From assembly GCF_000025945.1 (NCBI RefSeq), contig NC_006138.1, forward strand, positions 360,001 through 392,000: a DNA stretch of 32,000 nucleotides, read 5' to 3'. This DNA is from Desulfotalea psychrophila LSv54. Lineage in GTDB: Bacteria > Desulfobacterota > Desulfobulbia > Desulfobulbales > Desulfocapsaceae. Every line of letters starts with the position of its first letter. Positions within the stretch are counted from its first letter, which is position 1. This document shows positions 4,050 through 22,211 of the stretch, in pieces. The position numbers and the translations under genes are program-made. The notes under the pieces were generated by a model. That model searched no databases and was not told the origin of the DNA. It saw only the letters and a program-made list of their open reading frames with translations.

Positions 4050-5423
4050 ATGAGCGAGAAAAAAAAACCTGCCATTAACGTAAGCGAAACAATCATCGAA
4101 AGTATTTCCGAAGGTCTTTTCACAGTTGACCACCAACTTAAAATAACGTCATTCAACAGGGCTGCAGAAAAAATCCTTGGTATCTCCAGGCAAGAGGCCA
4201 TAGGTAAGCACTGTTGGGAGATCTTTCAGTCAAACATGTGTGCATTCCACTGTGCCCTGAAACGCACCATAAAAGAAAAAAAATCGTTTACCAACTCATC
4301 TACCTTTATCAGAGACCACAAGCAACAAAAAATTCCAGTTATCGTCTCTACCTCTGTTTTACAAGATGAAGCAGGCAATATTCTAGGGGGCGTCGAAATT
4401 TTTCGCACCAAGGCCACCAGAGAAGAACTGCCAAGAGAAGCAACAGGCAATTTCCATTTGGAAAACATGGTCAGTCGCTCCCCCAAAATGCAAGACCTCT
4501 TCGCCATCCTCAAACAGGTTGCTCAAAGTGACAGTACCGTTCTGGTTGAAGGAGAGACAGGAACAGGCAAGGAACTCCTGGCAAGGGCAATCCACAATCT
4601 TTCCAGTCGAGCAAAACGGCCATTTGTCGCCGTCAACTGCGGCGCCCTCCCAGACACCTTACTGGAATCAGAGCTCTTTGGCTACAAGGCAGGAGCCTTT
4701 ACCGATGCGCGCCACGACAAAGACGGACTCTTTGCCGCAGCTGCAAACGGCACCATTTTTCTTGATGAGATAGGCGACACCAGCCCTGCCTTTCAGGTAC
4801 GCCTCCTTCGAGTTCTCGAAGAGCGAGAATTCCAGCCCCTGGGCAGTACCAAAAAAATAGCAACAAATGCCAGAATTATCACAGCAACCAATAAAGATCT
4901 CAGTCAACTGATCCATAAAGGACTCTTTCGTCAGGATCTTTTTTATCGCATCAACGTCATTATCCTCAAGCTCCCCCCTCTCAGGGAGCGCCGAGAAGAC
5001 ATCCCCTTGCTAATAGAACAAATTATCAGCAAGCTCAACAATATCAAGAATAGACAAATAACAGGCCTTTCTCCCGAGGCAGAAAAGTACCTGCTTTCCC
5101 ATGATTACCCAGGCAATATCAGAGAGTTGGAGAACATCATCGAGCACGCCTTTATCCTCTGTCGCGGCAACACCATTGATTATCCGCATTTCCCTGCCTA
5201 CCTCCAACAGGAGAGTAGACAGGTGACCCTCTCCGCTGACGAGAGCCCCAATAGCTTTGACTGGGCAGAGAAGGAAACTATCCTCAAGGCACTTGAGCAA
5301 AACGGCTATAACCGCCAGGCTGCGGCCGACCATCTCCGAATCCACAAAAGCACCCTCTTCCGCAAAATCAAACGACTCGGTATTAAGCTACCAAATCAAG
5401 ACGGACGTCACCGGAAAAGATAG
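4050..5423 (+). CDS. Sigma-54-dependent transcriptional activator (PAS sensor, AAA+ domain, Fis-type HTH; no receiver domain)
   Basis: PAS-like N-terminus (IIESISEGLFTVDHQLKITSFNRAAEKILG). Walker A GETGTGKELLARAIH. ESELFGY and GAFTDA (a GAFTGA-type sigma-54 contact loop). C-terminal HTH NRQAAADHLRIHKSTLFRKIKRLGI. Confidence 0.9.
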   Translation: MSEKKKPAINVSETIIESISEGLFTVDHQLKITSFNRAAEKILGISRQEAIGKHCWEIFQSNMCAFHCALKRTIKEKKSFTNSSTFIRDHKQQKIPVIVSTSVLQDEAGNILGGVEIFRTKATREELPREATGNFHLENMVSRSPKMQDLFAILKQVAQSDSTVLVEGETGTGKELLARAIHNLSSRAKRPFVAVNCGALPDTLLESELFGYKAGAFTDARHDKDGLFAAAANGTIFLDEIGDTSPAFQVRLLRVLEEREFQPLGSTKKIATNARIITATNKDLSQLIHKGLFRQDLFYRINVIILKLPPLRERREDIPLLIEQIISKLNNIKNRQITGLSPEAEKYLLSHDYPGNIRELENIIEHAFILCRGNTIDYPHFPAYLQQESRQVTLSADESPNSFDWAEKETILKALEQNGYNRQAAADHLRIHKSTLFRKIKRLGIKLPNQDGRHRKR

Positions 5424-8800: not shown

Positions 8801-9331
8801 ATGAAATCGGGTAAATTCATTGCCTATAGTGCAATTATTGCTCTATTCACTGCAGTTGTCCTGTTTTTCTATCTTCTCGACACGTCAAAGGCCCTCTCCT
8901 ATCTATCAACAGATCCCAAGGCCTGTATCAACTGTCACGTAATGAATGCCCAGTATGCAAGTTGGCAACATAGCTCCCATGCCAATCAGGCAGGTTGTAT
9001 TGACTGCCACCTGCCAACGGATAGCTTTGTCCATAAATACATCTCTAAGGCACGAGACGGATGGAACCACAGCGTCGCCTTTACCCTCAACACCTATGCA
9101 CCCCGAATTGAGATAAGTGCCGATGGGGCAAGACGGGTACAGGCCAACTGTATCTCCTGCCACAACAGGCTGACCGGCACCATCCGGGCAAACGAAGATA
9201 AGTACCACGATTTTTCAAAAGCAAAAGCGACAGAAAGAAAATGCTGGGATTGCCATCGAAACGTTCCCCATGGCGGCGTGCACAGCATCATATCAGCTCC
9301 AAATAATCTTGGTGTAAGAGAATTACAATAG
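8801..9331 (+). CDS. nrfH: NrfH, membrane-anchored tetraheme cytochrome c (NapC/NirT family), quinol-oxidising subunit of nitrite reductase
   Basis: N-terminal transmembrane helix plus four CxxCH motifs (CINCH, CIDCH, CISCH, CWDCH). Immediately upstream of nrfA. Confidence 0.9.
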   Translation: MKSGKFIAYSAIIALFTAVVLFFYLLDTSKALSYLSTDPKACINCHVMNAQYASWQHSSHANQAGCIDCHLPTDSFVHKYISKARDGWNHSVAFTLNTYAPRIEISADGARRVQANCISCHNRLTGTIRANEDKYHDFSKAKATERKCWDCHRNVPHGGVHSIISAPNNLGVRELQ

Positions 9332-9342
9332 GAGGAAACCCT

Positions 9343-10869
9343 GTGAATAAGTCCTATAAAATATTACTGACAGGATCGGTGATTGCAATTGGTGCCATGG
9401 GCCTCATGGCAAACTCCATCAACAGTCGAGAGGCAGAGCGAAAAGAGATCAACACGGGGCCTGTTGTCCAGGCTGAGGGAGTGGCCAGCAAAAACGAAGA
9501 GTGGTATCGTTACTATCCGCGAGAATACGATAGTTGGAAACAGACAAAAAAAAGCGACAAAATCACCGATCTTCTGAGAGAAAAGCCTCAACTTGCGATC
9601 ATCTGGGCCGGCTATGGCTTTGCCAAAGATTACAACGCCCCACGAGGTCATTTCTACGCCATCCAGGACAACATCAACACCCTGCGCACCGGCGCCCCCA
9701 CGGGACCATCCAATGGACCAATGCCCACGGCCTGCTGGACCTGTAAATCCCCCGATGTCCCCCGTCTGATGGACGAGGTGGGTGAAAATGAATTCTTTAC
9801 CGGAAAATGGGCCAAATATGGGAACCAAATCGTCAACCCCATTGGTTGCGCTGACTGTCACAATAGCCAGACGGGTAACCTCGGCTTTAGTCGACCTCAC
9901 CTGGGAAGAGCACTTGAGGCCAGTGGAGTAAATCTTGACGAGATCACCTTCCAAGACATGCGCACCCTGGTCTGTGCCCAATGTCACGTCGAATATTATT
10001 TCCGGCCAACGGAATGGACAGACAAAACGGGTAAGACAAAAACTGCCAAGGTGGTTACCCTGCCCTGGGCCAAGGGACTCTCAGCTGAAAACATGGAAGA
10101 GTATTACGATGAATATAGTTTTAAGGACTGGACCCATAAGATAAGCAAGGCCCCCATGCTCAAGGCTCAGCATCCGGGTTACGAACTCTTCTCCAAGGGA
10201 ATCCACGCCCAAAATGGCGTCTCCTGTGCCGACTGCCATATGCCCTACAAGCAACAGGGTTCCATCAAGTATACAGATCATAATATAGGCAATCCCCTGG
10301 ATGACATAGCCAGCACCTGCCTCACCTGCCACCGTGACAGTGAAAAGGCCTTCAGGGACCGCGTTGCCAGCAAACTTGAACGCAAAGAGCAGCTCATGAA
10401 GATGGCCATGGATACTCTGGCCGCAGCCCATCTTGAAGCAGGAAAGGCCTGGGAACTTGGGGCCACAGAGGCAGAGATGCAGCCCGTACTTGAGCTCCTT
10501 CGCTCCGGCCAATGGCTATGGGATTACTCCATTGCCAGCCATGGTTCCTTCTTTCACTCTCCCGAAGAGACCCTTCGGCTCTTGGGAGTAGCCAATGACA
10601 AGGGTGGCAAAGCGCGAATAAAACTTGCGGCAATTCTGGCTCAACATGGCCTGATCGGCTATCAGGTTCCAGATTTTTCTACCAAGGAAAAAGCCCAGGC
10701 ACTTGCCGGCGTCCCTCTCCAGAAGCTCATTACAGAGAAGAAGGCCTTCGAGTCAACCCTGCTTGAGCAGTGGAATGAGGAGGCCGTAAAAGCTGGCCGT
10801 CTTGATCCTAAAACCCTTGAAGGAATGAGCAACAAGAGTTCCTGGTCTCAAACCGAGCTCTCTCAGTAG
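9343..10869 (+). CDS. nrfA: NrfA, pentaheme cytochrome c nitrite reductase (ammonia-forming)
   Basis: Signal peptide. Diagnostic CWTCK (CxxCK active-site heme, 9733-9747) plus CADCH, CAQCH, CADCH and CLTCH. GTG start at 9343 with an AGGAGG RBS at 9331-9336. Confidence 0.95.
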   Translation: MNKSYKILLTGSVIAIGAMGLMANSINSREAERKEINTGPVVQAEGVASKNEEWYRYYPREYDSWKQTKKSDKITDLLREKPQLAIIWAGYGFAKDYNAPRGHFYAIQDNINTLRTGAPTGPSNGPMPTACWTCKSPDVPRLMDEVGENEFFTGKWAKYGNQIVNPIGCADCHNSQTGNLGFSRPHLGRALEASGVNLDEITFQDMRTLVCAQCHVEYYFRPTEWTDKTGKTKTAKVVTLPWAKGLSAENMEEYYDEYSFKDWTHKISKAPMLKAQHPGYELFSKGIHAQNGVSCADCHMPYKQQGSIKYTDHNIGNPLDDIASTCLTCHRDSEKAFRDRVASKLERKEQLMKMAMDTLAAAHLEAGKAWELGATEAEMQPVLELLRSGQWLWDYSIASHGSFFHSPEETLRLLGVANDKGGKARIKLAAILAQHGLIGYQVPDFSTKEKAQALAGVPLQKLITEKKAFESTLLEQWNEEAVKAGRLDPKTLEGMSNKSSWSQTELSQ

Positions 10870-11047: not shown

Positions 11048-12427
11048 ATGGACTTTATTAACTTTTCTCACTCAGGCCTGAAAATCAAAGAACTCACCAT
11101 TACTCCGGGGGATACCTGGTGCTTTTATGGAGGAAATCTCTCGGGCAGTGAAGCGTTCCTCCAACTACTTACTGGCAACCTCGGTCACGAAGGAAAAAAA
11201 CACCCAGCCGTCCTGCCTCAGGCGAGCGTGGTCTCCTTTGATAAACTCCAAGAGGTTTTTGAAGCGGAACTGGCCAAGGATGATTCAGATTTCCTTGACT
11301 ACCTTGATCCCGGTACAGTTGCCGGAGACTTCCTGCCCCATGGTAGCCTCTACCACCCCCTTGTCAGCATCCTGGGAATGAAGGAAAAGCTGGAAACCGG
11401 TTTTAAGCAGCTCAGCTCAGGTCAGGCAAGAAAACTGCTTCTCCTGGAGGCCATCCTTGGTGGGAAAAAACATATTATTCTGCACACCCCCTACGACGGT
11501 TTAGACAGCAAAAGTTGCCTAGAGCTCAACCTTGCCCTCCAGGCCCTACCCGAAAACCTGACCCTGCTCCTCTTTGTTCATAACATAGATGACATACCTG
11601 ACTGGTGCAGCCACATTGGCTGGTTTAAGGACAATGCCCTCTACCGCCAGGGAGACTACAAAGAGATTATCGGCGATATTCGAAGTGAAGAGCTGGAGAT
11701 ACGAGAGATAAACCTGCCCAGCCAGAGCCGTCCCTCCTCCGAAGAGCTACTCTATCTTCGGGCAGGATTTGGCAGCTACCAGGGAAAAAATGTCTTTACC
11801 GGCCTTAATCTACACATCCACTCCGGCGACCACCTCCTTATTACCGGGGCCAACGGCTGCGGCAAGTCGACCCTCCTCCAGATCATCACCGGAGACCATC
11901 CCGACTGCTACGTCAACGACCTCCGTCTCTTTGCCCATAAACGAGGCAGCGGCGAGTCTATCTGGGATATCAAAAAACAGATGGGTATTGTCTCCCCTGA
12001 TCTACATCGAAACCACAGATGCCCGGGTTCTGCCCTGCATATTGTTATCAGCGGTCTCTATGACACCATAGGTCTTTATGTACGTCCCAGTCAGCAGGAG
12101 ATTAAAGAGGGATTAAAATGGATTGCCTGGTTGGGCCTAGAGGAGAAAGCGGAAAAGCCATTTCGCAGCCTGAGCTTTGCCGAGCAACGACTGATCCTCA
12201 TCGCCCGAGGTCTAATAAAGATTCCTCGCCTCCTCATCCTCGACGAGGCAAGTCAGGGACTGGACGAAAGCTACCGGGAACAGTTTATGACCGTTATAGA
12301 AAAAATTGCCCGGGAACAGCTCTCCACCATCCTCTTTGTCAGCCACCGGGAAGATGAACATCGCGATTTTTTCAAATACCACATAAAACTGGGTCAGTAT
12401 AGCCCGCTAAACAGAGAGGAGAAGTAA
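11048..12427 (+). CDS. modF: ModF-like soluble ATPase with two ABC nucleotide-binding domains; the N-terminal domain is degenerate
   Basis: The C-terminal domain is canonical (GANGCGKST, LSFAEQRLILIARGL, LLILDEASQGLD). The segment ITGDHPDCYVNDLRLFAHKRGSGESIWDIKKQMGIVS closely recalls E. coli ModF. The N-terminal domain keeps LSSGQARKL but has GGNLSGSEA in place of Walker A and ILHTPYDGLD in place of Walker B. Confidence 0.75.
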   Translation: MDFINFSHSGLKIKELTITPGDTWCFYGGNLSGSEAFLQLLTGNLGHEGKKHPAVLPQASVVSFDKLQEVFEAELAKDDSDFLDYLDPGTVAGDFLPHGSLYHPLVSILGMKEKLETGFKQLSSGQARKLLLLEAILGGKKHIILHTPYDGLDSKSCLELNLALQALPENLTLLLFVHNIDDIPDWCSHIGWFKDNALYRQGDYKEIIGDIRSEELEIREINLPSQSRPSSEELLYLRAGFGSYQGKNVFTGLNLHIHSGDHLLITGANGCGKSTLLQIITGDHPDCYVNDLRLFAHKRGSGESIWDIKKQMGIVSPDLHRNHRCPGSALHIVISGLYDTIGLYVRPSQQEIKEGLKWIAWLGLEEKAEKPFRSLSFAEQRLILIARGLIKIPRLLILDEASQGLDESYREQFMTVIEKIAREQLSTILFVSHREDEHRDFFKYHIKLGQYSPLNREEK

Positions 12428-12428
12428 T

Positions 12429-12734
12429 ATGATTACCGTTCTAGCCTCAATAACTGTCAAAGATGGCTCTATGGAGGAGTTTCTCCGTATATTCAAGGAG
12501 AACGTGTCAGCGGTTCTCGCCGAGGAGGGCTGTATTGAATACTACCCCGCCATCGATACCAGAACAGATCTCCCCCCCCAGATCTACCAGGAAAACACAG
12601 TAACCATCATAGAAAAATGGCAGAGCTTAGCCGCCCTCAAGGCCCATCTGGCCACAGCGCATATGCTTGCCTATAAAGAGGCCACCGCCTCCATGCTGGA
12701 AACACTCTCCCTCAAGATATTGGAAAACGCATAG
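12429..12734 (+). CDS. ABM-domain (antibiotic biosynthesis monooxygenase fold, YgiN-like) protein
   Basis: 101 aa. MITVLASITVKDGSMEEFLRIFKENVSAVLAEEGCIEYY...IIEKWQSLAALKAHLATAHMLAYK shows the typical ABM ferredoxin-like pattern. The start lies 1 nt after the modF-like stop, with a GAGGAG RBS. Confidence 0.7.
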   Translation: MITVLASITVKDGSMEEFLRIFKENVSAVLAEEGCIEYYPAIDTRTDLPPQIYQENTVTIIEKWQSLAALKAHLATAHMLAYKEATASMLETLSLKILENA

Positions 12735-12749
12735 GAGAGAGCACACTCT

Positions 12750-12873
12750 TTGCCCCCTCCTTGTCTCAGCCAATGACCAGGGCTACTGCCCCAAGTAGCC
12801 CATCGCTGAGAGCCTCAGGCCAACTACGTTCAGCCAATCTCATCGGTTGAGTAGCGGGCAGGAGGAGGGGCAA
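12750..12873 (+). other. Approximately 125-nt nested inverted-repeat element (multi-stem RNA structure or MITE/REP-like repeat)
   Basis: Outer arms ttgccccctcct (12750-12761) and aggaggaggggcaa (12860-12873). Inner stems are tctcagc/gctgaga (12764-12770 with 12805-12811), gggctact/agtagccc (12780-12787 with 12794-12801), gcc-tca-ggc, and cuac..ucagcc / gguuga-guag, which contains a G-U pair. Confidence 0.4.
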
Positions 12874-13281
12874 CCCCATAACATATTTTCCTACACTTAT
12901 ACCGACTCGACGCCAAAGGTAATCACACCCTGAAGGCTGTTACCCATCAAACTATTTTCTCCACCCAACTCGTTAATTCACCGAATCAAACTAAGCGAAA
13001 CTCTCTCTCCATTGATCTTCAATATCATTTTATTATCTCATTGCTATTTTTAAGAGGTAGCAGCGAGCTCTACAAACCAACATCCCAGAAAGCTGCTCTA
13101 TGGCAAATATGGATAAGCCCCGACAGCCATCACCCACAAATATTTCACCTTGATGGCGAACTACACAATATTAAAATCTATTTTAAACTCATTTTTTCTG
13201 TACTTAGTGATAAGTTTGTGGGATGCTAGCAGAAATCAGCTCTTCACCAGAACTCATCCGAAGAACCAAGGGCAAAAAATA

Positions 13282-14034
13282 ATGGTCAAGATACTCCTCA
13301 TACAGGCCGCCAGAAAACTGTGGACAGCAACAAAGGATCTGTTGCCAATAATCCTCATTATAGCCTTCTTTCAGATAGTTGTCATCAAACAGCCCCTGCC
13401 AGATGCAGGAGGGATACTGACAGGATTGCTCCTGGTAATCTTGGGTCTTGCCCTCTTTGTCGAAGGACTGGAAATTGCCCTCTTCCCCATCGGCGAAAGC
13501 ATGGCCCACGCCCTCTCTAAAAAAGGTAGTGTCTTTTGGGTCCTCACCTTTGCCTTTCTTCTCGGCTTCTCGACCACAATTGCAGAGCCCGCCCTGGTAG
13601 CGGTCTCCGGCAAGGCAGCAGACGTTGCCGTCCGGGGAGGCCTGCTGGAAAACACACCCCAGGCAATTGCCTCCTATGCAACAGGAATCCGACTTTCAGT
13701 GGCCTTTTCCGTTGGCCTTGCCATCCTCCTCGGCGTACTGCGTATCCTCCTGGGTTGGCCCATACATTTTATTATTATCGGCGGCTACCTGTTGGTGATG
13801 CTGATAAGCAGCGTCGCTCCCAAGGAGATAATCGGCATTGCCTACGATGCAGGAGGTGTCACCACCTCCACCATTACCGTTCCCCTCGTCACCGCTCTCG
13901 GAGTAGGTTTGGCAACGGTTATCAAAGGCAGAAGCCCCCTTCTCGATGGCTTTGGCCTCATCGCCTTCGCCTCCCTGTTACCCATGATATTCGTCATGGG
14001 CTACGGCATATTTATGTTTGGATGGGCATTATGA
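13282..14034 (+). CDS. DUF1538-type polytopic membrane protein (paralog A)
   Basis: [40 protein letters not shown]...[14 protein letters not shown]...[10 protein letters not shown]...[25 protein letters not shown]...[17 protein letters not shown] 13282 was chosen by alignment with the downstream paralog. The track ORF start at 13150 adds a non-homologous extension. Confidence 0.8.
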
Positions 14035-14807
14035 TAATTGAACTTTTTTGGACACTGCTCTCGACCATACGGGACGTTCTTCCCATCATCCTTCTCTTTG
14101 GTTTTTTTCAACTGGTGGTACTTCGCAGCGCCCTGCCCAATCCCAGACGTCTCTGCTTTGGCATTGTCTATGTTATCCTTGGTCTTACCCTCTTTTTAGT
14201 GGGACTTGAAAACGCCCTCTTCCCCATCGGCAAGATCATGGCTACCCAACTCACCGACCCCATCTTTCTCCAAGGTGACAGGGCAAGTATCGACCTCGGC
14301 TATTGGGCAAATTATGGGTGGATATACTGTTTTGCCGCCTGCATTGGCTTTGCCACAACCATTGCGGAGCCATCCCTTATAGCTGTCGCCTATAAGGCTA
14401 ATGAGGTGTCCGGTGGTGCCATTAGCAGCTGGGGCCTGCGCATCACCGTTGCCACAGGAGTTGCCATTGGCATCAGCCTTGGCTCATTTCGAATTGTCAC
14501 AGGAACACCCCTATATTTATATATAATGGTAGGGTATATTATTGTTATATTACAAACATTTTTCACCCCAAAATCCATTATCGCCCTGGCCTACGACTCG
14601 GGCGGAGTGACAACCTCCACGGTAACGGTACCCATTGTAACAGCGCTTGGACTCGGACTTGCCACCTCTGTGCCTGGACGATCTCCTGCAATTGACGGCT
14701 TTGGCCTCATCGCCTTTGCCTCTCTTTTTCCTATTATTACGGTATTAGGATATGCTCAATATATTCATTGGGTAAGTACTCGGAATAAGAAACCCATAAA
14801 GGAGTAA
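14031..14807 (+). CDS. DUF1538-type polytopic membrane protein (paralog B)
   Basis: [36 protein letters not shown]...[14 protein letters not shown]...[10 protein letters not shown]...[25 protein letters not shown]...[14 protein letters not shown]. The start overlaps the stop of paralog A (ATGA at 14031-14034). Confidence 0.8.
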
Positions 14808-14810
14808 AAT

Positions 14811-15158
14811 ATGCGATTTCAACTTATTCTAGCATCCGTTAAATCGGATATCACAGATAAGGTTGTTGATGGAGCAAAGGCAGCGGGAGCAACGGGAGCA
14901 ACAATTATCACTGCCCGTGGCACTGGCCTTCGTGAGGCAAAGACATTTTTTGGTCTCTCCCTGGAGGCTCAAACGGACATCATCATGTTCTTGGTAGAAG
15001 AACATGTTCTCCAACCCATACTCGATGCCATTGGTACCATAGGTGAGTTTCACAAACCAGGCACAGGCATCGCCTTTGTCCTGCCCGTGGACCAGGTTAT
15101 TGGCCTTGAAAGCCAGATAGAAAGATTTAAAGAAGAAGCGCGAAAAAAATACTTTTAA
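14811..15158 (+). CDS. PII-like signal-transduction protein with a shortened T-loop
   Basis: MRFQLILASVKSDITDKVVDGAKAAGATGATIITARGTGLREAKTFFGLSLEAQTDIIMFLV...HKPGTGIAFVLPVDQVIGL shows the PII beta-alpha-beta fold pattern. The T-loop is about 6 residues shorter than in GlnB and has no Tyr51 equivalent. AAGGAG RBS; the start lies 3 nt after the upstream stop. Confidence 0.75.
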   Translation: MRFQLILASVKSDITDKVVDGAKAAGATGATIITARGTGLREAKTFFGLSLEAQTDIIMFLVEEHVLQPILDAIGTIGEFHKPGTGIAFVLPVDQVIGLESQIERFKEEARKKYF

Positions 15159-15179
15159 TATCAATTAAGAGGTCACAAG

Positions 15180-15578
15180 ATGATTGAAAAAAAACTCGTC
15201 AGAGCCCGTGACGTAATGCGCAAACAGGTCCCCACCATCGATGGCATGGCCACCGCCCGCGATGCTGCCAATATGATGAAAGAGCATCAGGTCTCCTCAT
15301 TGATCGTCAATAAAAGGGACGAAAACGATGCCTACGGTCTTATCAGCATCCAGGACCTTATCACCGAGGTTATGATCCCGGCCCGGGAGGCAGATATGGT
15401 AAATGTCTATGAACTTATGACAAAACCAATCATTTCAGTCTCTGCTGATATGGACATCCGCTATGTAATCCGTCTGCTACACAGGGTAAATATGCGCCGC
15501 GCCCCCGTGGAAGAGAATGGTCACCTGGTTGGCATGGTCACCCTCACCTCACTGGTTCTCGACCACGATCTTTTTTAA
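15180..15578 (+). CDS. CBS-domain pair protein
   Basis: 132 aa with two CBS repeats (VRARDVMRKQVPTIDGMATARDAANMMKEHQVSSLIV... and VYELMTKPIISVSADMDIRYVIRLLHRVNMRRAPVEENGHLVGMVT). Confidence 0.85.
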   Translation: MIEKKLVRARDVMRKQVPTIDGMATARDAANMMKEHQVSSLIVNKRDENDAYGLISIQDLITEVMIPAREADMVNVYELMTKPIISVSADMDIRYVIRLLHRVNMRRAPVEENGHLVGMVTLTSLVLDHDLF

Positions 15579-15608
15579 CTGAAAAAAAACTACCTCCCTG
15601 AAACAGGC

Positions 15609-16214
15609 CTAATAGCTGGGTGCGCCCGCAAGCAACATCTCAGCAATAGTTTTCTTTACCTTGGGCAGAGAGGCCCGTTTATAGAGACAGAGCTCATTTT
15701 CAAGCTGAAGTAGCTGACTCAGATGAGGGGTGCGCTCAACATGGGGAGCACTCTCCGTTCCGGCAAAGCGTGAGGTCACAATCTCCTGGCAACGGAAACA
15801 ACCGAGAAAATGACGTATCTGCCCGTTGGGAAAGCGCATAACAGCAGGGACTCCATGGGTGCGGCAAACAAGCAAGCGGTGCTTATAAAGAACACAGAGC
15901 CCCTCCCGGTTAAGAGGACACATCAGCTGCGGACGCTCCTGACGCGCCTCTGCCATCTGGCAGCCAGCGACATAGTCCCGACAACGCCCCAGGATATCGG
16001 CCTGCGCCCCCGCTTCCAGCTCAGAGAACCCCTGCCAGAGATATGCCCACTCCACATAGGTATGGTGGAGAAAATAAGAGTCACAGCAATTATCAGCACA
16101 ACCATCACAGCTAAATCCTAACTCAGCCGCCACCAGGGAATAGGCATCTGCCATCTCTGCATAAGTCGCCTCCATACGAGCCATCTGCTCTGAAGAGAGA
16201 AGCAATTCAGTCAT
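15609..16214 (-). CDS. YkgJ/UPF0153-type cysteine-cluster protein (CxxCxxCC)
   Basis: FSCDGCADNCCDSYFLHHTYVEW plus further Cys pairs (CPLNREGLCVLY, CRTHG, CFRC). GGAGA RBS upstream of ATG 16214. Confidence 0.7.
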   Translation of the reverse strand: MTELLLSSEQMARMEATYAEMADAYSLVAAELGFSCDGCADNCCDSYFLHHTYVEWAYLWQGFSELEAGAQADILGRCRDYVAGCQMAEARQERPQLMCPLNREGLCVLYKHRLLVCRTHGVPAVMRFPNGQIRHFLGCFRCQEIVTSRFAGTESAPHVERTPHLSQLLQLENELCLYKRASLPKVKKTIAEMLLAGAPSY

Positions 16215-16528
16215 AAAAATCTCCTAGTAAATCATTAGAAAAAACGGGAAAAAGGCGCAAGCCTTCCTCTCACGGACACCCTCAAACAGCAGTGACCAGA
16301 GTACCATATTCCCACAAAGACCAACATTTTTAATGAATGCCAGCCCTTGCCAAAATATATTCACAGAAAGCAGGGTCTTACAGAATAAGGTCAATTCCTC
16401 AAAGCAGGCCCAAACAGAGGGCAGGCAGGGTTACGGGGGGAAGTTAGGCTGAGAGAAAGGGGGCGGTGAACAGGAGAGCAGAGGCATAGCTGGACAGACG
16501 AGGCAACTGCCCGCCCAGCTTTGAGCCA

Positions 16529-18400
16529 CTAGAGGTGCTGAGGAATATCCCGTGGATCGGTCATCTTTTCAGGCGAGAGCATATCATCCAGCTCCTTCTT
16601 GGTAAGCAGACCCTTCTCCAGGACAAGATTATAAACGCTGCCACCTGTCTTCAGGGCCTCCTTGGCAATGGCAGCAGACGGCTCATAACCGATAACCGGG
16701 ACCAAAGCGGTAACAAGACCAATGCTATTTTCCACATAGGAACGACAGACGTCACGATTCGCCTCAATACCGACGATGCAACGAGAGGCCAAGGTGACGC
16801 AGGCATTTTTAAGAATCATCATACCGTGGAGCAGGTCGTAGGCAATAATTGGCTCCGCCATACAGAGCTCCAACTCACTGGACTCGGCGGCCATGGAAAC
16901 CACAGTATCGTAGCCAATAACCTGATAGCAGATCTGATTGACCACCTCAGGAATAACAGGATTAACCTTGCCCGGCATGATGGAAGAGCCTGGCTGCATG
17001 GGTGGCAGGTTTATCTCATTGAGACCACAACGGGGCCCGGAGGAGAGCCAGCGCAGATCATTACATATCTTTGAAATTTGCACCGCAGCCCGTTTCATGG
17101 TCGCAGACATCTGGACAAAGGTACCCGCATTTTGGGTGGCCTCAACAAGATTTCCTGCTCTTTTCAGGGGAAAGCCACTCACCTCAACAAGCTTTTCAGT
17201 TACCAGATCGGCATAGCCTAGAGGACAGTTAATGCCGGTGCCAATGGCAGTAGCCCCCATATTAATATGCATAAACTCTTCGGATGCACCCTCTATGGCA
17301 CGCATGGCACTTCCCACCATTACAGCATAGGCACTAAATTCCTGGCCAAGAGTCATGGGCACCGCATCCTGATTTTCCGTTCGTCCCATCTTCAAAACAT
17401 CCTTAAACTCAACGGATTTTTGCAGAAGGGCATTTTTCAGATCCTCCATCCCTCGGGCCAGGTTACGATGCGAGAGCAGTACGGCAAGTTTGACCGCCGT
17501 GGGATAGGTATCGTTGGTCGACTGAGAACAGTTGGCATGATCGTTGGGATGCAGGTACTGATACTCTCCCTTCTCATGCCCCATAAGCTCCAGACCACGG
17601 TTGGTTATGACCTCGTTGGCATTCATATTGGTGGAGGTGCCCGCCCCGCCCTGGAACATATCCACTGCAAAATGCTCATGCAATTTACCCTCTAAGAGCT
17701 CAACACAAGCTCCACAGAGAGCCTCCATCTTCTCCCCATCCATCACCCCAAGCTCAAAGTTAGCGCGAGCAGCAGCAATCTTAATAAAGGCAAATCCTTC
17801 GATGAGATGACTAAAATTACTTACCGGCACCCCGGAGATCGGAAAATTCTCTATAGCTCTCTGAGTTTGCACCCCATAATAGGCATCACCGGGAATCTCC
17901 CTATGTCCCAGGGAATCATGTTCCAGGCGAAAACCGCTCATCGTCCGTCTTTTACAGGTTTCACCATAAAGCTGCTCGGAAAGTGTGCGCATACGCCTAT
18001 TGATGGCCACCGCGACCCGGGAAACCAATCGATAAAATATCTCCGGTTGCTCCTTTCTGAAAACATCAATCTTTTCCCGGGAAACCTGCCAGACCACCGC
18101 CCCTAAACGGGTATAACCTCCATTGGCATGGGAATCCTGATCAATAAAGACACCCTCGGATATCAATCCTCCCGCAGAAACGGTACCAACACGGTGAGAG
18201 CTACCATGCAGGCCACGAACAAGCTGAATCTCTCCGGCAAGAATAATTCCTGCCCAGTTTCTAGGAGTTGATTCCTGAAAGAGCCAATCACCGGCTGCAT
18301 ACTCTATACGCTCACCCTGAGCAAAAAATGTCTGTAAATCTACCTCTTCAATTCCCGCCGTCAGCGCTGCCTGCTTAAGAGTATTTTCATCTAACTTCAT
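16529..18400 (-). CDS. aspA: Aspartate ammonia-lyase fused to an N-terminal cyclic-nucleotide-binding-like domain
   Basis: The core is near-collinear with E. coli AspA (DSLGHREIPGDAYYGVQTQRAIENF, MGHEKGEYQYLHPNDHANCSQSTNDTYPTA, GSSIMPGKVNPVIPEVVNQ). The first ~155 residues form a cNMP-binding-like beta-barrel (IEYAAGDWLFQESTPRNWAGIILAGEIQLVRG...GGLISEGVF). I set the start at ATG 18400 (MKLDENT) because the track TTG at 18412 lies inside the GGAGGA RBS (18405-18410). Confidence 0.9.
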   Translation of the reverse strand: MKLDENTLKQAALTAGIEEVDLQTFFAQGERIEYAAGDWLFQESTPRNWAGIILAGEIQLVRGLHGSSHRVGTVSAGGLISEGVFIDQDSHANGGYTRLGAVVWQVSREKIDVFRKEQPEIFYRLVSRVAVAINRRMRTLSEQLYGETCKRRTMSGFRLEHDSLGHREIPGDAYYGVQTQRAIENFPISGVPVSNFSHLIEGFAFIKIAAARANFELGVMDGEKMEALCGACVELLEGKLHEHFAVDMFQGGAGTSTNMNANEVITNRGLELMGHEKGEYQYLHPNDHANCSQSTNDTYPTAVKLAVLLSHRNLARGMEDLKNALLQKSVEFKDVLKMGRTENQDAVPMTLGQEFSAYAVMVGSAMRAIEGASEEFMHINMGATAIGTGINCPLGYADLVTEKLVEVSGFPLKRAGNLVEATQNAGTFVQMSATMKRAAVQISKICNDLRWLSSGPRCGLNEINLPPMQPGSSIMPGKVNPVIPEVVNQICYQVIGYDTVVSMAAESSELELCMAEPIIAYDLLHGMMILKNACVTLASRCIVGIEANRDVCRSYVENSIGLVTALVPVIGYEPSAAIAKEALKTGGSVYNLVLEKGLLTKKELDDMLSPEKMTDPRDIPQHL

Positions 18401-18438
18401 AATATCCTCCAAAAAGTTGATTGATATGCGGCCCTATA

Positions 18439-19746
18439 TTAAAGAAACAGCCTGCCAAAAAGAGAGGCAAACACAACGGCAGAGGCAATTGTGACCAGGC
18501 CGGGTATTATAAAAGAGTGATTAAAAACATATTTACCAATCCGGGTGGTTCCTGTGTCATCAAACTCCACGGCGGCAATAAGGGTTGGATAGGTTGGCAG
18601 AACAAAAAGAGCACTGACCGCAGCAAAAGAGGCAATCGCGGTCAGCGGGCTCACCCCCAGAGTAAGAGCTACGGGCATCAGGGCCCTGGTTGTCGCCGCC
18701 TGCGAGTAGAGCAGGGTAGATGCCACAAAGAGCACTACAGAGAGAAGCCATGGGTAAGATCGTAGTAAATTGCCCGCAGTCATATGAATCTCTTCCATAT
18801 GAGCTGCAACAAAGGTCGTGCCAAGCCAGGCCACCCCAAGTACACAGACACAGGCACTCATTCCCGACTTAAAGGTCGAAACGTTAAGAATATTTTTTGC
18901 CTCTATCTTGCAAAAAAAGGTGATAAAAGAGGCCGCCGTTAGCATAAAGGCAATAATGGCATTGTTTACCGGTAAGACAGGCTGAGCAACCAGGCCAACC
19001 GTAGGACTGATGCCAATAGCATAGGCAACGACACAGAAAATAGTTATGGCAAAGATAAGAACAGAACGTTTTGCCGCATGCGAACTCTCTCTGGCAGCCT
19101 CTTCCTCCGTTACCTGACTTACCTGACCCTTACGAAGACGCTCCTGATATATGGGATCATCGGCCAGCTCCTTACCCAAAAAATTTGTGACGAAGGCACC
19201 GACCATAACGGCAAGAAAGGTACTGGGAATACAGATAAGAAGAAGATGTATATAATCAACACCATGCTTACCCAGTTCAGCAGCAAAGAAAACCACGGCG
19301 GCTGAAATAGGCGAAGCTGTTACTGCTATCTGGGAGGCAACGGTGGCGATGGCAAGTGGCCTGGAGGGACGGACACCAGCCCGCTTAGCCACTTCAGCGA
19401 TAACCGGCAGGGTTGAAAAAGCAGTATGGCCCGTACCGGCAAACAGGGTCATGGTATAGGTAACAATGGGAGCAAGAAAGGTGATATATTTGGGATTCGC
19501 TCGCAAAACCCTCTCGGCAATAGAGACAAGATAATCAAGACCACCAGCCTCCTGCATAGCCGCAATGGCAGCAATAACGGCCATGATAATCATAATCACA
19601 TCTATGGGCATATCCCCTGGAGGAATCTGAAAGACAAGGGCAAGTACCAAAACACCAAAGCCACCGGCAAAGCCAATACCTATGCTACCCATCCTTGCTC
19701 CAAACCAGATAAACAGCAGTACAACAGCGAGTTCTATAGCCCACAT
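18439..19746 (-). CDS. dcuA: Anaerobic C4-dicarboxylate transporter, DcuA/DcuB family
   Basis: Strong end-to-end resemblance to E. coli DcuA (GARMGSIGIGFAGGFGVLVLA, NPKYITFLAPIVTY, LPVIAEVAK, ASPISAAVV, YSQAATT, LPTYPTLIAAVEFDDTGTTRIGKYVFNH). GGAG RBS. Confidence 0.9.
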   Translation of the reverse strand: MWAIELAVVLLFIWFGARMGSIGIGFAGGFGVLVLALVFQIPPGDMPIDVIMIIMAVIAAIAAMQEAGGLDYLVSIAERVLRANPKYITFLAPIVTYTMTLFAGTGHTAFSTLPVIAEVAKRAGVRPSRPLAIATVASQIAVTASPISAAVVFFAAELGKHGVDYIHLLLICIPSTFLAVMVGAFVTNFLGKELADDPIYQERLRKGQVSQVTEEEAARESSHAAKRSVLIFAITIFCVVAYAIGISPTVGLVAQPVLPVNNAIIAFMLTAASFITFFCKIEAKNILNVSTFKSGMSACVCVLGVAWLGTTFVAAHMEEIHMTAGNLLRSYPWLLSVVLFVASTLLYSQAATTRALMPVALTLGVSPLTAIASFAAVSALFVLPTYPTLIAAVEFDDTGTTRIGKYVFNHSFIIPGLVTIASAVVFASLFGRLFL

Positions 19747-20486: not shown

Positions 20487-22211
20487 CTACTCTTCGCAGG
20501 AATGAGCACTTGTAATATTGTACCGTTGCGCCTTGCGAACCACGGTAGACTGGCTCACCCCGAGGACCTTTGCCGCCTTATAGGTACTCTTACACTCCAA
20601 GAGGGCATTACCTATCAGGCGAATCTCTAAATCCTCCACGGCATCCTTCAGAGATTGGCGAGGAAGCGGATGAACAGACTCCTTATTAGAGGCAATACAG
20701 AGACAACCTGGTACATCGGTGATTTTAATAAGATCTGAATCACTCATGGCGGCAAGCAGTTGAATCGTTGCCCGCAACTCCCGAACATTGCCCGGCCAGG
20801 GATGTGCCACCAGGGCATCCAGTACCTCGGGAGCCATGCTCTTGTAGAGACCATATTTTTTATTAGCACGACCAAGAAAATGCGCCACCAGCAGAGGAAT
20901 ATCTTCGACTCGCTCTCGCAAGGGTGGAATATTAACCACAATAACCCGCAGGCGATAGTAAAGATCTTCACGAAACCGTCCTGCTTCAATCAAATTTTCA
21001 AGAGATTGATTGGTCGCAGCAACGATTCGGACATTGGGCATATGCAACTTTGTCCCGCCCAAACGACGGTAGCCTGAGCCATCAAGCACATGAAGAATTT
21101 TTACCTGCATATGCAGTGGCAATTCACCGATCTCATCAAGAAAAAGAATTCCGCCATCGGCAAGCTCAAACATGCCCGGCTTTCCCTTCTCCGATGCACC
21201 GGAAAACGCCCCGGATTCATAACCGAAAAGCTCCGCCTCAAGAAGATCCGCCGGAATAGCACCACAGTTCAGGGTCACAAATGGTTTATCGCGACGCACA
21301 CTTCGACTATGGATATTCGTCGCAGTCATTGTCTTGCCGGTACCTGTCTCACCGAGAAGCAGAACAGGGGCATCTACATTGGCCGATTTCTGTACATCTT
21401 TTTCCAACTGACGGGTTGCAAGACTGGTCCCCAGATATTCGCCCGGAGTTTCAAGGGAACGTAGACGGTCACGGTAGAGTTTAGCCTCCATCTCGGCCTT
21501 ATTCAGCTTTCTTTCCAGATCTTCCAGTTCACTGATATCACGAATACAGGCAATAACACGCCAGACACGTCCATCGTCATCAAAAATGGGGGTACTTGTA
21601 TTTAAGCACCTTATACCATTTGAATAATCATCAAATCTAGTCTGGGGTTTCTTAGTCTCTAAGGCCTTAAGGGTAATACAGGTGGTGGTAAGTCCCATTT
21701 CCACCGCAGCCGTTACATGCTTACCAATAACATCTTCGGCCCGGACTCCGGCAATACGCTCCATTGCCTTGTTCACTCGCAATGTAATTCCATCACCATC
21801 AATAACCCAAACACCGTCGTGCATAGATTCAAAAAGGATATCAAGCTCTTGAAATTCAATAATGGCATCCTGACCCAGATGCTGCATTGGCATCGAATAG
21901 GCAAAGACACTTCTGGTTTTTGTGGCTACATCCAACCAAAACCAGGTGAGAGCAAAAACCTGATCCTCATGATAATAGGGGACCAGAAATCCCTCTGAAG
22001 CCTCAACCAAACTCCCTGCAACAGCAAAGAGATCAAGTCGGGTACAACACTTTAAAAAAGACTGACCCTCCAGTCCGCCCTTATCATTTTTAAACGCCTC
22101 ACAGAAGTTATTGTTTGCCCGTTCAATAACCCACTGCGCCCCACGACAGGTACAAACCGCCACATGTTTCTCAAGGGATGAGAAGGTGGTCGCCCAATTA
22201 ATTGTTTCCAT
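20487..22211 (-). CDS. Sigma-54-dependent transcriptional activator (N-terminal sensory region with PAS, AAA+ domain, HTH)
   Basis: GETGTGKTMTATNIH, EAELFGYESGAFSGA (GAFTGA-type loop), ELRATIQ, and a C-terminal HTH YKAAKVLGVSQSTVVRKAQRY. A PAS segment (FESMHDGVWVIDGDGITLRVNKAMERIAG). Confidence 0.9.
   Translation of the reverse strand: METINWATTFSSLEKHVAVCTCRGAQWVIERANNNFCEAFKNDKGGLEGQSFLKCCTRLDLFAVAGSLVEASEGFLVPYYHEDQVFALTWFWLDVATKTRSVFAYSMPMQHLGQDAIIEFQELDILFESMHDGVWVIDGDGITLRVNKAMERIAGVRAEDVIGKHVTAAVEMGLTTTCITLKALETKKPQTRFDDYSNGIRCLNTSTPIFDDDGRVWRVIACIRDISELEDLERKLNKAEMEAKLYRDRLRSLETPGEYLGTSLATRQLEKDVQKSANVDAPVLLLGETGTGKTMTATNIHSRSVRRDKPFVTLNCGAIPADLLEAELFGYESGAFSGASEKGKPGMFELADGGILFLDEIGELPLHMQVKILHVLDGSGYRRLGGTKLHMPNVRIVAATNQSLENLIEAGRFREDLYYRLRVIVVNIPPLRERVEDIPLLVAHFLGRANKKYGLYKSMAPEVLDALVAHPWPGNVRELRATIQLLAAMSDSDLIKITDVPGCLCIASNKESVHPLPRQSLKDAVEDLEIRLIGNALLECKSTYKAAKVLGVSQSTVVRKAQRYNITSAHSCEE

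Follow-up and report, generated by a model that had tools for sequence, protein, structure and literature searches.

The closest described counterpart of the locus analysed here is umpAB of Halomonas zhaodongensis, an overlapping pair of DUF1538 genes reported by Meng et al. (Sci Rep 2017, PMC5484666). The cloned insert comprised a truncated open reading frame (ORF1) and ORF2-4, where ORF3 and ORF4 are umpA and umpB, respectively; the pair restored the growth of the antiporter-less Escherichia coli strain KNabc at 0.4 M NaCl, 30 mM LiCl and pH 8, the two products were co-immunoprecipitated as a heterodimer, and everted vesicles containing UmpAB exhibited Na+, Li+ and K+/H+ antiport, which was highest at pH 9 (PMC5484666). 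The UmpAB clade delineated in that study (54-93% identity; PMC5484666) takes in homologues from Desulfobacula, Mariprofundus and Methyloglobulus, and in papers on cable bacteria the genes named UmpAB have been tied to saline habitats (saltwater and brackish groups). The DNA considered in this work, referred to as the window, is the whole stretch of 32,000 nucleotides (nt) spanning positions 360,001 to 392,000 of contig NC_006138.1 of Desulfotalea psychrophila LSv54. It harbors two paralogous DUF1538 genes, named A and B, followed by the gene of a PII-like protein and by that of a protein with a pair of CBS domains (Table 1). Judging from synteny, these four genes form one conserved module, whose best reading is that of a transporter controlled by a PII-type protein and, usually, by a CBS protein too.

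The structure of the cassette agrees in full with the original prediction as far as the gene calls and the spacings are concerned. The ORF listing and the raw sequence place the overlap between A and B, an ATGA with the start codon of B inside it, at positions 14031-14034, and leave spacers of 3 nt between B and the PII-like gene and of 21 nt between the latter and the CBS gene. The four assignments to hidden Markov model families (DUF1538 twice, P-II and a double CBS) all lie above the Pfam cut-offs; for DUF1538 (PF07556, cut-off 22.6 bits) the scores are 220.3 bits for A and 227.6 bits for B. The two membrane proteins share 47% identity (BLASTP, E = 2e-69), and each of the four motifs that had been quoted, i.e., GLE.ALFPIG, TIAEP.L.AV, AYD.GGVTTST.TVP.VTALG.GLA and [11 protein letters not shown], is present in both.

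The comparison with the NCBIfam models of UmpA and UmpB (NF041627 and NF041628) allowed the two subunits to be told apart. Protein A scores 347 bits with the UmpA model ("Na,Li,K/H(+) antiporter subunit UmpA") versus 201 with UmpB, while B scores 301 bits with UmpB versus 213 with UmpA; neither score reaches the respective equivalog cut-off (490 for UmpA and 500 for UmpB). Since ten gammaproteobacterial orthologues embedded in the same cassette also fall short of these cut-offs (368-401 bits), the two models seem to be confined to the Halomonas group. On sequence grounds, A and B are UmpA-type and UmpB-type DUF1538 orthologues in spite of their scores. Like umpAB, they are overlapping paralogous genes coding for proteins of about 250-270 amino acids (aa), and B has the longer loop II-III and the basic hydrophilic C-terminal tail described for UmpB. 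The differences concern the equivalog scores and the partners of the pair: in the published work only the two membrane genes are described, and PII and CBS proteins are mentioned nowhere (PMC5484666). The transporter adds a member to a family that is already described, and the statement that DUF1538 proteins have no experimentally defined substrate is out of date, since Na+(Li+,K+)/H+ antiport by UmpAB was shown in 2017 (PMC5484666).

In order to assess how constantly the four genes occur together, genomes (one per species) were scanned with an alignment of A plus B. The scan disclosed at least 555 relatives, the best 80 of which, 59-73% identical to A, were analysed; they belong to Desulfobacterota, Gamma-, Zeta- and Alphaproteobacteria, Magnetococcales, Bacteroidota and Gemmatimonadota. 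Each locus was scored by searching its six-frame ORFs with the four proteins of the window. Three of the 80 loci end at a contig edge before a PII gene could appear (two after A, one within B), leaving 77 loci informative for PII, and 75 loci have room for a CBS gene. The order A-B-PII-CBS was found in 67 of the 77 loci and A-B-PII in nine, so that a PII gene lies directly 3' of B in 76/77; 67 of the 75 loci informative for CBS have that gene as the next one 3' of PII. The sole informative orphan is a UmpA-type gene in a metagenome-assembled genome of Candidatus Parabeggiatoa communis (locus L075, 5283-6020), where no B, PII or CBS gene was found within 6 kb downstream, in DNA without any run of N. 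The Desulfobacula, Mariprofundus and Methyloglobulus loci of this set, genera that are also represented in the published UmpAB clade, carry PII and, for the most part, CBS as well.

Overlaps between the stop codon of one gene and the start codon of the next are frequent. Genes A and B overlap by 4 or 1 nt in 32/77 loci, B and PII overlap in 30/76, and PII and CBS overlap in 37/67, with an overlap of 4 nt in 34/67; these overlaps and spacings point to translational coupling. No further neighbouring gene is conserved in the 80 loci, and the DUF1538-PII-CBS cassette is therefore self-contained.

The same association was observed when the search started from the PII-like protein instead of the transporter. 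A metagenome scan seeded with motifs of this PII clade retrieved 80 loci, a sample confined to PII proteins of 63-85% identity; the DUF1538 gene B is located directly upstream in all the 76 loci whose upstream DNA reaches 300 nt or more, and CBS is the next gene in 62/75. A more distant set was obtained by a plasmid tblastn search and consists of five DUF1538 relatives (28-32% identity) located on annotated plasmids or chromids. In all five, a gene annotated as "P-II family nitrogen regulator" immediately follows DUF1538, and in none of them is a CBS gene present. In Methylocystis and Chelativorans, A and B are split genes followed by PII; in Paraclostridium, Peptoclostridium and Vescimonas, the two DUF1538 units form a single fused protein (about 500 aa), and the gene downstream encodes a tandem double-PII protein (222-224 aa) with a short T-loop in both domains (loci L082 3200-5351, L084 3842-5993 and L085 3830-6024). 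It can be strongly inferred from this synteny that DUF1538 loci of distant phyla have PII as their constant third element, and the PII partner of the DUF1538 transporter is apparently obligate. The CBS gene, by the same token, is an accessory, found in about 83-89% of the close-clade loci and absent from the five distant relatives. Hence, of the transporter under dual ligand control that had been proposed originally, the PII link is upheld by a co-occurrence of essentially 100% in both directions and by gene fusions, while the role of the CBS protein was overstated.

Gene fusions were surveyed in 150 representatives, clustered at 50% identity, of 2912 family matches at E <= 1e-3. One of them (P0122) is a fusion of A, B, a linker and PII, in which PII is placed on the C-terminus of B; its cluster has three members of equal length and is found on five contigs. 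DUF1538-PII fusions are also represented by the single-member clusters P0130, P0138, P0169 and P0150, some of which might be frameshift artefacts. A different arrangement is that of the metagenomic protein P0123 (724 aa, six contigs, the longest of 689 kb), where a double DUF1538 unit is fused to a C-terminal cytidylate-kinase-like P-loop domain, so that a nucleotide-binding domain occupies the place that PII has in other members. Some 40 of the 150 have a length of 560 aa or more (for instance P0159, P0167, P0170, P0173, P0212, P0223 and P0227); in those scanned with Pfam (seven in a batch of ten representatives), two DUF1538 halves are accompanied by 100-300 additional aa, for which no match with Pfam or with the PII and CBS profiles was found.

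The PII-like protein matches Pfam P-II (PF00543) with 39.3 bits (cut-off 25) and no other Pfam family at E <= 10; NCBIfam, including the models that name GlnB and GlnK, gave no match at E <= 0.01. Its AlphaFold2 model (mean predicted local distance difference test score, pLDDT, of 84, with a floppy T-loop) has a beta-alpha-beta-beta-alpha-beta core and an extra C-terminal helix (residues 99-114). The top Foldseek matches of this model are GlnK1 (2j9d) and GlnB (1hwu), with E of about 6e-7 and template modelling (TM) scores of 0.6-0.66, and TTHA0516, SbtB and CPII are also matched (E about 1e-6). It shows 100% identity with the protein that NCBI records for D. psychrophila, and the identity with E. 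coli GlnB is only 26%. The T-loop is indeed shorter than in GlnB, as had been predicted, by five residues according to both HMMER and MAFFT rather than by about six, and the absence of Tyr51 also stands: an Ala occupies this position, and no Tyr exists in the whole loop.

Among 76 orthologues of this protein, the conserved elements are GATGAT, RG.G, the T-loop stretch KTFFGL.LE.Q.D, EEH, the B-loop pGtGIAF, Gly98 and Gln102. Conservation is highest in the T-loop (RG.G....KTFFGL.LE.Q.D), which has an invariant Lys44. Residues K58, K90, R101 and R103 are the ATP and 2-oxoglutarate contacts in the structures of GlnB and GlnK. In the PII-like protein, the K58 position falls within the deletion, and Ile stands in place of K90, a conserved Gly in place of R101 and Glu or a variable residue in place of R103; the glycines corresponding to G37, G87 and G89 are kept, together with a G27-like one. 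Since the five-residue deletion and the type of B-loop are common to the alphaproteobacterial, the tandem clostridial and the fused versions, an old and distinct DUF1538-associated PII clade is suggested, and, in terms of its sequence, the protein is a non-canonical PII belonging to a clade of its own. In SbtB, Lys and Arg residues of the T-loop bind ADP and ATP at their beta and gamma phosphates (bioRxiv 10.1101/2023.08.10.552651); this precedent and the invariant Lys44 make nucleotide binding by the PII-like protein possible.

Two described pairs of a PII protein and a transporter are particularly close to this arrangement. As in GlnK-AmtB, a PII-fold protein is encoded beside a transporter, and by analogy its conserved T-loop could enter the cytoplasmic face of the latter; unlike GlnK-AmtB, the transporter is of another family, the T-loop is shortened and has lost the Tyr51 uridylylation site and the ATP/2-oxoglutarate residues, and the homotrimer of AmtB, which fits a PII trimer, contrasts with the heterodimer reported for UmpAB. 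As in SbtB-SbtA, a PII-like gene shares its operon with a Na+-coupled transporter, the best structural matches include SbtB, and the basic T-loop residues through which SbtB binds nucleotide phosphates have a counterpart in the Lys44 kept by the clade of the window. In contrast with SbtB, the PII-like protein has no cysteine at all and thus no Cys redox R-loop, in place of which it has its C-terminal helix; sbtA is not present, and the transporter is unrelated to SbtA by sequence, no structural relative of it having been detected in the PDB.

Other systems are more remote. PII-NG is likewise a non-canonical PII clade tied to a cation/proton antiport system, namely, the czcABC heavy-metal/proton antiporters (Sant'Anna 2009, as cited in PMC7726332). 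Its partner, CzcABC, is of the resistance-nodulation-division type, and PII lies 5' of the pump genes versus 3' of B in the window; as the identity of the PII of the window, PII-NG, which was compared by description only, was set aside because it is linked to czcABC and not to DUF1538. In proteins made up of YitT and a C-terminal DUF2179 domain (such as Borrelia BB0017), a PII-like domain is located on the cytoplasmic end of a polytopic protein whose function is poorly known, which recalls the A-B-PII fusion P0122, but the membrane domain is a different one without sequence relation to DUF1538, and both loops of the PII-like domain are truncated.

The CBS protein contains two tandem CBS stretches (PF00571, 83.3 bits), and its weak NCBIfam matches include the CBS regions of MgtE, ClcB and ProV. 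The motif G-h-h-(S/T)-x-x-D is the ribose-binding motif of CBS structures. It can be recognized in CBS1 as G53-L-I-S-I-Q-D59, where Gly53 and Asp59 are at least 90% conserved in 67 orthologues, and CBS2 has a Ser at the position of the ribose-binding Asp; one site for an adenosyl ligand per monomer is plausible from this pattern. A CBS pair accompanying an ion transporter is also found in MgtE, CLC, OpuA/OpuC and CNNM/CorC, unlike which the CBS protein of the window is a separate polypeptide of 132 aa that is optional across the family.

The architecture of the membrane moiety was analysed by structural modelling and by the distribution of charges. The AlphaFold2 model of A (pLDDT 83) has nine helices, two of which are helix-break-helix elements; the breaks fall on the invariant motifs TTIAEP (100-103) and GGVTTST.TVP (196-199). 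Two broken helices per subunit, placed at invariant motifs, would represent a typical position for an ion site. No match between A and the PDB sequences was obtained at E <= 1, the Foldseek search with the model of A stopped at E = 0.75 and TM < 0.3, i.e., no structural relative was detected, and a Pfam scan of A at E <= 10 gave noise only beyond DUF1538. The possibility of an internal repeat within the DUF1538 subunit was rejected, since the hhalign comparison of the two halves gave a probability of 0.3%.

As to orientation, the number of membrane passes per subunit is odd, namely, seven. The summed Lys and Arg (K+R) content of the N-tail plus the alternate loops amounts to 7.7 in A (79 orthologues), against 1.7 for the other set of loops; in B (75 orthologues) the bias is reversed, with 2.65 against 8.3, the latter value including 4.6 from the basic C-tail. 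Under the positive-inside rule, A is predicted to be N-in/C-out and B to be N-out with its basic C-terminal tail in the cytoplasm, and the opposite bias would make the two subunits antiparallel. In natural A-B fusions the linker is short and non-hydrophobic. The odd number of passes, the fusions with such a short linker and the presence of PII on the C-terminus of B are consistent with an antiparallel heterodimer, and we infer, rather than demonstrate, that A and B make up in effect a 14-helix inverted-repeat transporter. Since the family has neither a solved structure nor a detectable structural relative, the predicted antiparallel A/B pair, with its four broken helices, would constitute a new transporter architecture.

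On the whole, the operon probably encodes a UmpAB-type monovalent cation/proton antiporter together with dedicated cytoplasmic regulators. According to this interpretation, A and B would exchange monovalent cations for protons, a function carried over from the Halomonas study, and the PII clade, whose link with the transporter is strongly suggested by synteny and fusion, would be its dedicated cytoplasmic partner. By analogy with GlnK-AmtB and SbtB-SbtA, PII might dock on the cytoplasmic face and, through its short T-loop, gate or lock the transporter depending on a bound small ligand; the most likely ligand would be an adenine nucleotide, held in part by basic residues of the T-loop as in SbtB. 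The CBS protein, whose translation is coupled with that of PII in half the loci, might be a second, clade-specific sensor modulating the same complex. In this bacterium of marine sediments, the system would serve Na+ (or K+) extrusion and pH homeostasis and would be switched by the energy or ionic state.

Some observations weigh against this interpretation. The basal activity of UmpAB in E. coli needs neither PII nor CBS (PMC5484666), because of which the two proteins should modulate the transporter and not enable it. The characterised Halomonas umpAB locus lies outside the loci that were scored for PII and CBS, and no Halomonas record was present in the plasmid tblastn search for DUF1538 relatives. 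PII proteins are trimeric and UmpAB is reportedly a heterodimer, which is a mismatch in stoichiometry; with K58, K90, R101 and R103 missing, the binding of a nucleotide by PII is not assured; and the CBS gene is lacking in about 11-17% of the close loci and in all five distant ones. Lastly, the substrate was assigned in one heterologous study by acridine-orange dequenching (PMC5484666).

The alternative that survives best, although it appears unlikely, is that the native substrate is another ion or metabolite (for instance NH4+, bicarbonate or some other small solute) and that the Na+/H+ antiport recorded in E. coli is a secondary activity; in that case, the constant presence of a PII partner would mirror the classic role of PII at carbon and nitrogen transporters. 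PII-family proteins are in fact best known as plugs of AmtB and SbtA, the only functional data were obtained in a single heterologous system by means of an indirect assay based on fluorescence, and the DUF1538 fold matches no solved antiporter. Against this, the antiporter-less strain was complemented directly and vesicle antiport was recorded for three cations, this PII clade is devoid of the 2-oxoglutarate/ATP contacts that couple PII to the carbon and nitrogen status, no gene for nitrogen or carbon assimilation is conserved beside the cassette, and the UmpAB homologues of cable bacteria are reported from saltwater and brackish groups.

It is rather improbable that PII and CBS are a pair of receptors of cyclic di-AMP (c-di-AMP) through which the antiporter is controlled, a scheme for which PstA/DarA, DarB/CbpB, OpuCA, CpaA and KhtT of Firmicutes would be the precedents. 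Both the PII-like and the CBS folds are recurrent c-di-AMP receptors. Moreover, c-di-AMP governs the transport of K+ and osmolytes, cation/proton antiporters included (PMC4316997), and it is bound by SbtB (PMC8654305). The protein of the window is not of the PstA/DarA type, though, since Pfam gives P-II only, and its T-loop remains the long loop. PstA and DarA have a family of their own, DUF970, with exchanged lengths of the B- and T-loops. Furthermore, many Gammaproteobacteria carry the cassette (Enterovibrio, Shewanella, Colwellia and Hahella, for instance), a group not generally known to possess diadenylate cyclases.

Still less probable is that PII and CBS are co-transcribed with the transporter genes but act on other targets, or are assembly factors rather than ligand-controlled gates. 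The activity of UmpAB in E. coli without either of them, and the fact that CBS is dispensable in many lineages, would agree with this idea; on the other hand, the strict adjacency across phyla, the frequent translational coupling and the covalent fusions point to an action of PII on the transporter itself, and within PII it is the T-loop that is conserved most. Finally, that the PII-like protein might be an ordinary GlnB/GlnK nitrogen regulator merely adjacent to the transporter genes, as its above-threshold P-II match, its PII fold and the database name "P-II family nitrogen regulator" would have it, is hardly credible and is already contradicted by the sequence and synteny tests, given the lack of any NCBIfam GlnB/GlnK match, the low identity to E. 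coli GlnB, the shortened T-loop without Tyr51, the missing K58, K90, R101 and R103, the DUF1538 linkage in every PII-seeded locus with enough upstream DNA and the DUF1538 fusions of some organisms.

Within the interpretation as a regulated antiporter, a bolder version can be put forward tentatively, namely, that this PII clade might serve an antiparallel UmpAB-type antiporter of novel structure as its obligate regulatory subunit, which would represent, after AmtB-GlnK and SbtA-SbtB, a third independent pairing of a PII protein with a transporter. Because the ATP and 2-oxoglutarate residues are lost, such a PII may respond to a different signal, and with its changed ligand site it may read AMP/ADP, a cyclic nucleotide, or cations or pH through the invariant EEH by the cleft. 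If this version were true, the published antiport would be the activity of a deregulated core, and PII control would extend from nitrogen and carbon to Na+/K+/pH homeostasis.

The full-text literature, in which subscription journals are thinly covered, yielded no description of a DUF1538-PII or DUF1538-CBS link; as far as can be told, the PII partnership, the distinct PII clade and the predicted antiparallel architecture are undescribed. The data would suggest that a metabolic signal bears on Na+/H+ exchange and that the sole functional study of the family looked at the transporter without its regulators. For research on PII proteins, the transporter is a new target that lends itself readily to testing, with a PII clade of its own throughout the sample, from Clostridia to Proteobacteria. 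Besides, UmpAB-type genes are now taken to indicate salt adaptation, as in cable bacteria; their annotation is still "DUF1538" beside a "nitrogen regulator", and the two labels are misleading.

Table 1. Coordinates of the cassette genes and of the DNA preceding them in the window.
Feature	Position	Strand	Length and evidence
Gene A, UmpA-type DUF1538 membrane subunit	13282-14034	+	250 aa; Pfam, NCBIfam, AlphaFold2, K+R bias
Gene B, UmpB-type DUF1538 membrane subunit	14031-14807	+	258 aa; Pfam, NCBIfam, K+R bias
PII-like gene, DUF1538-associated clade	14811-15158	+	115 aa; Pfam, AlphaFold2, Foldseek, synteny
CBS-pair gene, stand-alone, accessory cassette member	15180-15578	+	132 aa; Pfam CBS x2, synteny
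Non-coding stretch 5' of gene A	12735..13281	.	547 nt; ORF, Rfam, promoter checks

The stretch preceding gene A presumably holds the promoter and the 5' leader of the cassette. The ORF listing disclosed no ORF with homologues in it, the Rfam scan of 12000-16500 gave no riboswitch or other RNA at E <= 1, and promoter-like sites upstream of A, none of them convincing, are no more frequent than in shuffled sequence. On the 5' side of this stretch, at 11048-12734 (+), lies a ModF-like ATPase of the ABC type (323 bits, under the ModF cut-off), with the ABC_tran match in the second nucleotide-binding domain only and no permease gene nearby; an antibiotic biosynthesis monooxygenase-like (ABM) gene is located 1 nt further on. 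Two groups of genes in the window display no link with the cassette, namely, those coding for an NrfH-like (NapC/NirT) protein and for NrfA (cytochrome c552 nitrite reductase, 701 bits) at 8801-10869 (+), and those of the sigma-54 PAS regulators at 4050-5423 and 20487-22211.

On the 3' side, the CBS gene is separated by a gap of 30 nt from a convergent gene (15609-16214, -) for a cysteine-rich protein of 201 aa, which has no Pfam or NCBIfam family, the sole hint being CxxCxxCC at E = 1.8. Further on, at 16529-18412 (-), lies the gene of an aspartate ammonia-lyase (NCBIfam NF008909, 711 bits), which is extended at its N-terminus by about 155 aa with a weak resemblance to a cyclic-nucleotide-binding domain (PF00027, 21 bits, under threshold) and whose gene adjoins that of a DcuA C4-dicarboxylate transporter at 18439-19746 (-).

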